A stretch of 48,822 nucleotides of DNA from a virus (Duplodnaviria > Heunggongvirae > Uroviricota > Caudoviricetes): the IMG/VR virus record IMGVR_UViG_2541047788_000006; one strand, 5' to 3'. Both the position numbers and the translations under genes were made by a program. The number at the start of each line of letters is the position of its first letter. Within the stretch, counting starts at the first letter, position 1. A model generated the notes under the pieces. It made no database searches. It saw only the letters and a program-made list of their open reading frames with translations, and was not told the origin of the DNA. This document shows, in pieces, positions 2,304 through 4,506 of this stretch.

Positions 2304-3076
2304 TATAATAAACTTACTTTTTTATCATTTTTCCACTTTAACAACATTTTGCTCCACTTTTCCACGACCAAACAACTTGAAATCTGGTTAAAATAACACG
2401 CAACACTATTCTTCTTCCTTGAGTCCGCCCGGAACTCGAAAAACAAACCGAGTTAAAGCCATTTTTCACAAAATCGATTTTGGGTCTCACCAAAATTACG
2501 GGGTTGCATACGCATTCGTTTATTTTCGAACGTGTACATACAAATATGTACAAAAATAATCAAAATTATTTTCTGAGATGCATTATGATATGAACACCAA
2601 TTTCGTATAGAATCTCACTATGTCTCGAATTTTTGCTTACTGTCGGATATCAACGCTGGATCAGACCACCGAAAATCAACGCCGGGAAATCGAAAGTGCA
2701 GGTTTTAAAATCAAACCTCAGCAAATAATCGAAGAACACATTAGCGGCTCAGCAGCAACCAGTGAGCGTCCTGGTTTTAACCGGTTGCTTGCTCGCCTGA
2801 AATGTGGTGATCAATTGATTGTGACAAAACTGGATCGCCTTGGTTGTAATGCAATGGATATCAGGAAAACAGTGGAACAACTGACCGAAACAGGTATCAG
2901 AGTGCATTGCTTAGCATTGGGGGGCATTGACCTGACCAGTCCAACAGGAAAAATGATGATGCAAGTAATTTCAGCAGTCGCTGAATTTGAACGAGACCTT
3001 TTACTTGAACGCACTCATTCCGGGATAGTAAGAGCCCGCGGCGCAGGGAAACGTTTTGGTCGACCACCTGTGTTAA

Positions 3077-4271
3077 GGAAGGTGCGAATAAGCGGGGAAA
3101 TTCTTCTCGGCTGACTCAGTCATTTCATTTCTTCATGTTTGAGCCGATTTTTTCTCCCGTAAATGCCTTGAATCAGCCTATTTAGACCGTTTCTTCGCCA
3201 TTTAAGGCGTTATCCCCAGTTTTTAGTGAGATCTCTCCCACTGACGTATCATTTGGTCCGCCCGAAACAGGTTGGCCAGCGTGAATAACATCGCCAGTTG
3301 GTTATCGTTTTTCAGCAACCCCTTGTATCTGGCTTTCACGAAGCCGAACTGTCGCTTGATGATGCGAAATGGGTGCTCCACCTTGGCCCGGATGCTGGCT
3401 TTCATGGATTCGATGTTGATGGCCGTTTTGTTCTTGCGTGGATGCTGTTTCAAGGTTCTTACCTTGCCGGGGCGCTCGGCGATCAGCCAGTCCACATCCA
3501 CCTCGGCCAGCTCCTCGCGCTGTGGCGCCCCTTGGTAGCCGGCATCGGCTGAGACAAATTGCTCCTCTCCATGCAGCAGATTACCCAGCTGATTGAGGTC
3601 ATGCTCGTTGGCCGCGGTGGTGACCAGGCTGTGGGTCAGGCCACTCTTGGCATCGACACCAATGTGGGCCTTCATGCCAAAGTGCCACTGATTGCCTTTC
3701 TTGGTCTGATGCATCTCCGGATCGCGTTGCTGCTCTTTGTTCTTGGTCGAGCTGGGTGCCTCAATGATGGTGGCATCGACCAAGGTGCCTTGAGTCATCA
3801 TGACGCCTGCTTCGGCCAGCCAGCGATTGATGGTCTTGAACAATTGGCGGGCCAGTTGATGCTGCTCCAGCAGGTGGCGGAAATTCATGATGGTGGTGCG
3901 GTCAGGCAAGGCGCTATCCAGGGATAACCGGGCAAACAGACGCATGGAGGCGATTTCGTACAGAGCATCTTCCATCGCGCCATCGCTCAGGTTGTACCAA
4001 TGCTGCATGCAGTGAATGCGTAGCATGGTTTCCAGCGGATAAGGTCGCCGGCCATTACCAGCCTTGGGGTAAAACGGCTCGATGACTTCCACCATGTTTT
4101 GCCATGGCAGAATCTGCTCCATGCGGGACAAGAAAATCTCTTTTCTGGTCTGACGGCGCTTACTGCTGAATTCACTGTCGGCGAAGGTAAGTTGATGACT
4201 CATGATGAACCCTGTTCCATGGCTCCAGATGACAAACATGATCTCATATCAGGGACTTGTTCGCACCTTCC
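3077..4271 (-). mobile_element. IS5 insertion sequence, copy 1 (1195 bp)
   Basis: 16-bp terminal inverted repeats GGAAGGTGCGAATAAG (3077..3092) and CTTGTTCGCACCTTCC (4256..4271); flanked by a direct 4-bp duplication TTAA (3073..3076 and 4272..4275); encodes the IS5 transposase. Confidence 0.92.
3223..4239 (-). CDS. insH: IS5 transposase (DDE family)
   Basis: 338-aa ORF identical to the second copy at 37500..38516; the sequence from [34 protein letters not shown] matches InsH as recalled. The annotated 326-aa form would start at the internal Met (4203). Confidence 0.9.
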
Positions 4272-4506
4272 TTAAATGAAGAACAGAAACAGGTGGTATT
4301 CGAACGAATTAAGTCAGGTGTAAGTATAAGTGCCATTGCCCGGGAATTCAAAACCTCGCGGCAAACCATTTTAAGAGCCAAAGCAAAACTTCAGACACCT
4401 GACATATAAAAAATAATCTCGGTGTGAGATGCTTTACGTCTTCCAAGCCCCCTTCCTTGCCGTAAATGGAAAGATACATCTAATTATAGAATTTATATGT
4501 TTTACC

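Follow-up and report, generated by a model that had tools for sequence, protein, structure and literature searches.

The gene pin in a 48,822-nucleotide stretch of Caudoviricetes DNA (IMG/VR virus record IMGVR_UViG_2541047788_000006), referred to here at its full length as the window, is split by a copy of the insertion sequence IS5. The explanation preferred here, to which a probability of about 0.85 is given, is that IS5 recently struck a relic of tnpR, the resolvase gene of a Tn3-family transposon, and not a component of a tail-fibre switch. The resolvase ancestry of PinQ/PinR-type genes, taken by itself, is very highly probable. The original prediction for this locus had instead described a tail-fibre switching system that was doubly degenerate, with no alternative fibre cassette and a DNA invertase killed by IS5.

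The split gene and the element inside it occupy the following positions:

2620-3076, plus strand: 5' part of pin (pinQ-type tnpR relic), codons 1-152 plus the first base of codon 153
2845-2847, within the 5' part of pin: codon of Cys76
3073-3076: left copy of the TTAA duplication
3077-4271, minus strand: IS5, 1195 base pairs (bp), with its transposase open reading frame at 3223-4239, minus strand
4272-4275: right copy of the TTAA duplication
4276-4409, plus strand: 3' part of pin, from the rest of codon 153 to the stop, encoding the helix-turn-helix

The element has a length of exactly 1195 bp, is bounded by 16-bp imperfect terminal inverted repeats (GGAAGGTGCGAATAAG and GGAAGGTGCGAACAAG) and is 100% identical to the IS5 copies of many E. 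coli genomes. Its open reading frame encodes the Pfam domains DDE_Tnp_1 and DUF772. IS5 has a target preference for YTAR, which the TTAA duplication flanking both of its ends fits. When the element and one TTAA are removed, 2620-3076 joins 4276-4409 in a 591-nucleotide open reading frame of 196 amino acids, which reads ...FGRPPVL|NEEQKQ... across the joint. This confirms the predicted position of IS5, after codon 152 of a 196-residue recombinase gene. Pfam assigns residues 4-144 of the rejoined protein to Resolvase (E=2.5e-36) and residues 147-190 to HTH_7 (E=3.8e-11). IS5 had also been placed between the catalytic and the DNA-binding domain, and this holds insofar as the catalytic domain is cut from the helix-turn-helix; the break itself, however, lies six residues inside the HTH_7 match, past the GRPP arm and ahead of the helices, and not exactly at the domain boundary. 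The current reading frame runs into IS5 up to position 3114 and specifies 152 native amino acids followed by 12 IS5-encoded residues, with the helix-turn-helix cut off. By established knowledge of serine recombinases, the IS5-split pin is a null allele.

An exact empty site for this insertion is found in E. coli CFSAN061770, which is 100% identical to window positions 1-3076 and 4272-11787 and carries an uninterrupted pinQ with a single TTAA. Because the flanks are identical, the insertion is taken as recent and specific to the strain. Among 5426 complete E. coli genomes in RefSeq, none matches this pin::IS5 junction exactly at both ends of the element.

The rejoined protein is identical to PinR of E. 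coli K-12 (WP_000086527), and the two genes differ at two synonymous nucleotides. It has the hallmarks of a small serine recombinase: Resolvase and HTH_7 domains, R9 and S11 invariant in the alignment, and the nucleophilic serine in an RxST motif. No NCBIfam or PADLOC family matched it above threshold. Alignment with PinE (38% identity, E=4e-35) and Gin (36%) spans the full length, as expected if the gene encoded a DNA invertase, but the protein falls outside the clade of the Din invertases, to which PinE and Gin (78% identical to each other) belong. Identity to gamma-delta resolvase is 31%. Its closer relatives, at 60-85% identity, are recombinases encoded beside Tn3-family transposase or plasmid partition genes.

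Such relatives are widespread. Homologues of Pin at E<=1e-40 occur in 1858 plasmid records, and others are found in Shewanella, Erwinia, Photorhabdus, Mycoavidus and Sphingobium genomes. For instance, a 77%-identical Shewanella gene is divergent from an intact Tn3-family transposase gene (DDE_Tnp_Tn3, E=1e-148), while the homologue in pEA29 adjoins parA/parG. A tnpA gene, intact or as a remnant, is divergent from the relative's gene at loci L015, L033, L034, L035, L017 and L036; the replicons and genomes with such a gene or remnant include pRM10386-2, pECOED, one plasmid each of Klebsiella and Salmonella, and Photorhabdus. Pin is 77-85% identical to the genes of L015, L033 and L035, each of which lies beside a DDE_Tnp_Tn3 gene. 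The closest mobile relative of pinQ and pinR is a unit found on E. coli plasmids, a 3.8-kb tnpA-res-tnpR element with 38-bp inverted repeats at its ends that is annotated only as 'Tn3 family transposase'. One copy is located as follows:

L033 (pRM10386-2), 1824-5637: 3.8-kb Tn3-family element with tnpA, res, tnpR and 38-bp repeats, no passenger genes

This element is present in several copies or replicons of single E. coli strains, which indicates that it is mobile.

The catalytic residue set of Pin is incomplete, as Cys76 replaces the arginine equivalent to R71 of Tn3 resolvase. The motif reads KLDRLGC in all 16 phage- or prophage-borne Pin copies (among them, besides the window, L001, L002, L006-L014, L032 and L038) and KLDRLGR in 16 of 16 transposon- or plasmid-type relatives with a readable motif, as well as in PinE, Gin and gamma-delta resolvase. 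In Tn3 resolvase, the substitutions R71A and R71K abolish recombination and lower the cleavage rate about 1000-fold (PMC2794168). By analogy, Cys76 would be expected to cripple catalysis in the phage protein, and the substitution predicts a catalytic defect older than the IS5 insertion. The recognition helix, (S/T)RQTILR, is conserved between phage Pin and its transposon relatives.

The overall ratio of non-synonymous to synonymous substitution (dN/dS) against the sister transposon gene is ~0.15. In a three-point comparison, non-synonymous change amounts to 0.055-0.057 on the phage branch versus 0.015-0.017 on the transposon branch, about 3.5-fold more at similar synonymous change, although these branch rates are rough, with outgroup synonymous sites saturated. 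At this rough level, the substitution pattern suggests that Pin is under relaxed yet non-absent constraint. Loci L025 and L026, considered as diverged pin lineages, were dropped, being riddled with frameshifts in error-prone-looking assemblies.

Probable remnants of a transposon are also found on both sides of the gene. In most of the non-phage relatives scanned, the ATG is preceded by two sites built of the half-site TGT(C/A)CGAAA. One, of 26 bp (9+8+9), ends 88-90 bp before the ATG and the other, of 32 bp (9+14+9), ends 43-44 bp before it, each scoring 16-18 of 18, and a third stretch, of directly repeated half-sites, follows the 32-bp site. The same three-subsite res architecture is known from Tn3 and gamma-delta. 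Judged by its position next to tnpA, the 26-bp site is the probable equivalent of crossover site I. Alignment and a half-site scan recover a decayed version of this region in the window, together with a probable terminal-repeat remnant beyond the pin stop:

2507-2619, plus strand: decayed res-like region upstream of pin
2507-2532: position of site I; left half lost (3 of 9, chance level), right half TTTCGAACG at 2524-2532, 7 of 9, at the expected position
2547-2578: site II remnant, TGTACAAAA-N14-TTTCTGAGA, 15 of 18
2588-2609: site III-like stretch with a probable promoter
4418-4452, plus strand: probable, diverged remnant of a terminal inverted repeat of the 38-bp Tn3-family type, CTCGGTGTGAGATGCTTTACGTCTTCCAAGCCCCC versus CTTAGCGTGGGATATTTTCCGTTTTCCAAGCGGACCCC in relatives

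What survives upstream is thus not a complete three-subsite res, only the right half of site I, a weak site II and the site III-like stretch. Positions 2540-2619 nevertheless share 79% identity with the plasmid element, at a local score of 78 versus a null maximum of 38. The window has no tnpA homology. As the left half of site I matches no better than chance and tnpA is missing, the homology ends at or next to the presumed crossover point, an end that would fit resolvase-mediated exchange or deletion.

In intact elements, the same 38-bp repeat (type GGGG...ACGCTAAG) follows both tnpR and tnpA. The window has a single diverged copy directly after the pin stop, and no second terminal repeat is present in it. 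Across eight sequences, 31 columns of the repeat are invariant; the window copy carries substitutions and a 3-bp deletion, and its local score is 25 versus a null maximum of 22 (500 shuffles). The remnant is also present in Rac and in phage 2H10. Upstream res homology and terminal-repeat remnant together mark the module from ~2524 to 4452 as the probable fossil right end of a Tn3-family transposon.

Two further observations concern these sites. A perfect 20-bp palindrome, TGTACATAcaaaTATGTACA, lies at 2533-2552, ~70 bp upstream of pin, where it overlaps the left half of the site II remnant; it is unique in the window and is found in phage copies only. It was considered as a recombination site and rejected: it has a single occurrence, a canonical dimer site would be longer, and the transposon relatives lack it. 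In Erwinia oleae (L019, 1268-2652), two divergent recombinase copies share an intergenic region that contains a 26-bp site and a pair of 32-bp sites; such a back-to-back placement of resolvase genes is unusual.

The setting of pin bears on the tail-fibre question. RefSeq annotates the same DNA as ydfJ, ydfK, pinQ and tfaQ, and beyond stf follow lom, J and the remainder of a full-length lambdoid prophage. On the strength of this annotation and gene set, the window is a complete lambdoid prophage that occupies the Qin attachment site in ydfJ. The genes around pin, given for context, are:

1-1284, minus strand: 3' part of ydfJ (open reading frame list and annotation in RefSeq genomes with the same DNA)
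2037-2303: ydfK open reading frame
4507-5082, minus strand: tfa, tail fibre assembly gene, convergent with pin (Caudo_TAP, E=3.6e-43)
5082-8003, minus strand: stf, side tail fibre gene, 973 amino acids

With pin adjoining tfa and stf, with public records that name the gene pinQ, pinR or 'DNA invertase', and with the full-length alignment to PinE and Gin, the locus does resemble a Din-type (Hin/Gin/Pin) inversion system from which the cassette was deleted and in which the invertase was later killed by IS5. Part of what had been predicted on these lines is borne out. The gap between the pin stop (4409) and the tfa stop (4507) measures 97 bp, close to the ~100 bp stated, with no room for alternative fibre cassettes. 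The absence of an invertible tail-fibre segment is likewise upheld: no inverted repeats above chance link the pin flanks, tfa and stf, and no crossover site of gix/pix type was found in stf, in the pin-tfa gap or in the rest of the window. In the whole-window scan for hix/gix/pix-type 26-bp sites, the best score was 15 of 20, the maximum also reached in shuffled sequence, while the e14 controls pixL and pixR scored 19 and 18. The e14 repeat quoted in the literature has at best a chance-level match in the window.

What does not stand is the step from these absences to a degenerate switch. K-12 Rac, TOE17 Qin and CFSAN061770 all show the arrangement ydfK-pin-97 bp-tfa-stf with a base-identical gap; phage 2H10 has the same cassette-less layout and a near-identical gap, and eight further Escherichia/Shigella loci share the ydfK-pin-tfa-stf synteny. 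As every intact copy examined lacks a cassette, this layout belongs to the family as a whole and did not come about by loss in this strain, and there is no indication that the locus has ever lost an invertible segment. The orientation of the gene is also opposite to that of its supposed counterpart: pin points its 3' end at tfa and its 5' end away from the fibre genes, whereas pinE of e14 points its 5' end at the P segment. Din systems also have a Fis-bound enhancer in the 5' part of the invertase gene, near a crossover site, Fis sites being too degenerate to serve as a marker here. Together with the place of the protein in the TnpR clade and the res and terminal-repeat remnants flanking the gene, these findings have already largely refuted a Din-type origin of the locus, which must be considered extremely improbable.

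The sequence of events proposed for the tnpR relic is as follows. Pin would be the tnpR of a fossil Tn3-family right end, lodged between tfa and ydfK and made up of a partial res, tnpR and a decayed terminal repeat. Earlier, the transposase gene and the left half of the crossover subsite, site I, would have disappeared from the whole Rac/Qin-type phage lineage, and the active-site arginine would have changed to cysteine. Later, IS5 would have transposed at a YTAR target (TTAA) into this pinQ-type gene of an otherwise complete lambdoid prophage, leaving a 152-residue catalytic fragment with 12 IS5-encoded residues, separated from its helix-turn-helix, and a null allele. No tail-fibre segment would have been lost on the way, as none would have belonged to a tnpR module.

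The function of PinQ and PinR has been addressed experimentally. Kirigo et al. (Nucleic Acids Research, 2025) reported that both proteins, although no invertible DNA adjoins their genes, act in trans to invert the 1797-bp P segment of e14, and that this inversion creates StfE2, which blocks adsorption of phage T2 (PMC12529663). Their BLAST surveys found inversions in e14 only (PMC12529663), which agrees with the lack of an invertible segment in the Qin/Rac-type prophages considered here. If the published model is true, PinQ and PinR are working invertases and the host loses one copy of an anti-phage regulator through the IS5 insertion, with a phenotype that would need e14 in the same host. The model draws on the finding that PinQ has no effect without e14 or without either repeat (PMC12529663), in addition to the over-production and deletion results taken up below. 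Deletion of pinE alone, however, is reported to fix the P segment in a single orientation despite the presence of pinQ and pinR (PMC12529663), and a text search of the paper found neither a catalytic-serine mutant nor an in vitro recombination assay, the evidence being genetic (PMC12529663). Moreover, the predicted half-site of the clade, TGT(C/A)CGAAA, is unlike pix (TTCTCCCAAACC). Taken with the TnpR ancestry and the cysteine at the R71-equivalent position, this leaves direct catalysis by PinQ on pix sites open to doubt; judged from sequence, such catalysis is questionable, and direct inversion in trans appears unlikely.

Another possibility is that phage Pin is a non-catalytic DNA-binding protein, either an autorepressor acting at res subsites II and III or some other regulator, in which case IS5 would have destroyed a regulator. 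The conserved recognition helix would suit such a role, as would the retention of subsites II and III and the promoter-proximal region where site I is lost, and an open reading frame that stays intact under relaxed, non-neutral constraint even though every phage copy has lost the catalytic arginine. Each of the retained half-sites, however, shows 1-3 mismatches, and the site II of Rac, Qin and 2H10 scores too low to pass the scan threshold; binding is a prediction, and the intact reading frame could instead reflect the recent spread of one phage module. A purely regulatory Pin is somewhat doubtful. The broadest form of the resolvase explanation, put forward tentatively, holds that the Rac/Qin-type 'Pin' proteins, including PinR and PinQ of K-12, are not invertases but fossil or exapted Tn3-family resolvases, deprived of their crossover site and of an essential active-site arginine and catalytically inactive, and that their effect on e14 is indirect. 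The inversion may then be due to PinE or to the selection of cells in which the segment is inverted, and the protein may persist as a DNA-binding factor.

Several points weigh against the account of a decayed and inactive resolvase. Over-production of PinQ raises inversion of the P segment to 88% (PMC12529663), and deletion of pinQ lowers both inversion and T2 resistance, or survival (PMC12529663). The ratio of non-synonymous to synonymous polymorphism (pN/pS) on the phage branch, a rough ~0.26, indicates that some function is probably retained. Many prophages keep the pin reading frame whole and almost without variation, as do 11 deposited Escherichia phage records, namely 2H10 and ten further ones in which Pin is 99-100% identical. 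Upstream of the gene, the crossover-site assignment of the 26-bp site is by analogy, and the left boundary of the homology is uncertain by ~10 bp.

Insertions into pin are not confined to the window. Within the genomes searched, the left pin::IS5 junction is shared with TST3 and TBE6 only. In both, the same TTAA holds an ISKpn26-like element that differs from IS5 by 5.5% but has the same orientation, within a prophage that is more degraded and whose flanks differ by ~2% from the window. The TST3 insertion may be an independent event, or the same event followed by conversion of the IS copy. A further insertion, in CT02, lies elsewhere in the gene. The TST3 and CT02 insertions are located as follows:

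L003 (E. coli TST3), 8644-10433: ISKpn26-like insertion in pin
L004 (E. coli CT02), 3751-5540: IS5 insertion at pin codon 51, with CTAG duplication

The insertions in TST3/TBE6 and CT02 suggest that the pin gene at the Qin locus is a recurrent target of IS5-family insertion. Apparent pinR::IS5 alleles in DH10B-/DH5a-type genomes, raised by a broad megablast, were rejected: IS5 there lies upstream of ydfK, pinR is intact, and the pieces had merely been joined.

The window also holds a second IS5, at 37468-38662, which is 100% identical to the first, has the opposite orientation and is flanked by its own CTAG duplication. It splits a gene for a 595-residue DUF7380/DUF4209 protein (open reading frame ~37020-40006, plus strand) with a match (E=8e-103) to PDC-S39, a candidate defence system in PADLOC. 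The matching duplications at each of the two copies indicate that the intervening 33 kb has not been inverted by recombination between them.

The knock-out of an accessory prophage gene by IS5 is routine and is already recognisable from standard annotation. The ancestry of the gene is the only part worth following up, and is modestly interesting: in the literature searched, no paper was found that treats PinQ/PinR as relics of Tn3-family tnpR. In view of their sequence, flanking sites and relatives, genes of the pinQ/pinR type are not to be interpreted as what is left of tail-fibre phase variation. Resolvase ancestry and the active-site substitution also bear on the proposal, published in 2025, of direct inversion of e14 DNA by PinQ and PinR as a defence against phages.

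Compared with known systems, the inserted element does not differ from IS5 of the IS5 family of E. coli; it is a known element at a new insertion site. Like the Din invertases (PinE of e14, Gin of Mu, Hin and Cin), Pin is a small serine recombinase in which an N-terminal catalytic domain is followed by a C-terminal helix-turn-helix, and it is encoded in a prophage beside tail-fibre genes. Unlike them, it comes without 26-bp crossover sites or an invertible segment, turns its 3' end to the fibre genes and shares just 36-38% identity with PinE and Gin. The window gene shares the ydfK-pin-tfa-stf synteny and the identical 97-bp pin-tfa gap with PinR and PinQ of K-12; it is split by IS5 and lies in a full-length lambdoid prophage, whereas Rac and Qin of K-12 are cryptic remnants. 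The classical Tn3 and gamma-delta resolvases are distant, at only 31% identity. A further match is with the Tn3-family TnpR proteins and res regions of pRM10386-2, pECOED and the other relatives, which have the same protein length and recognition helix at 60-85% identity, a homologous promoter-proximal region (the site II/III remnants) and a probably homologous terminal repeat past the stop. The window departs from these in its lack of tnpA, the missing left half of the 26-bp site, the decay of the remaining half-sites and repeat, the cysteine in place of the active-site arginine, and the setting of the gene in a phage accessory region.

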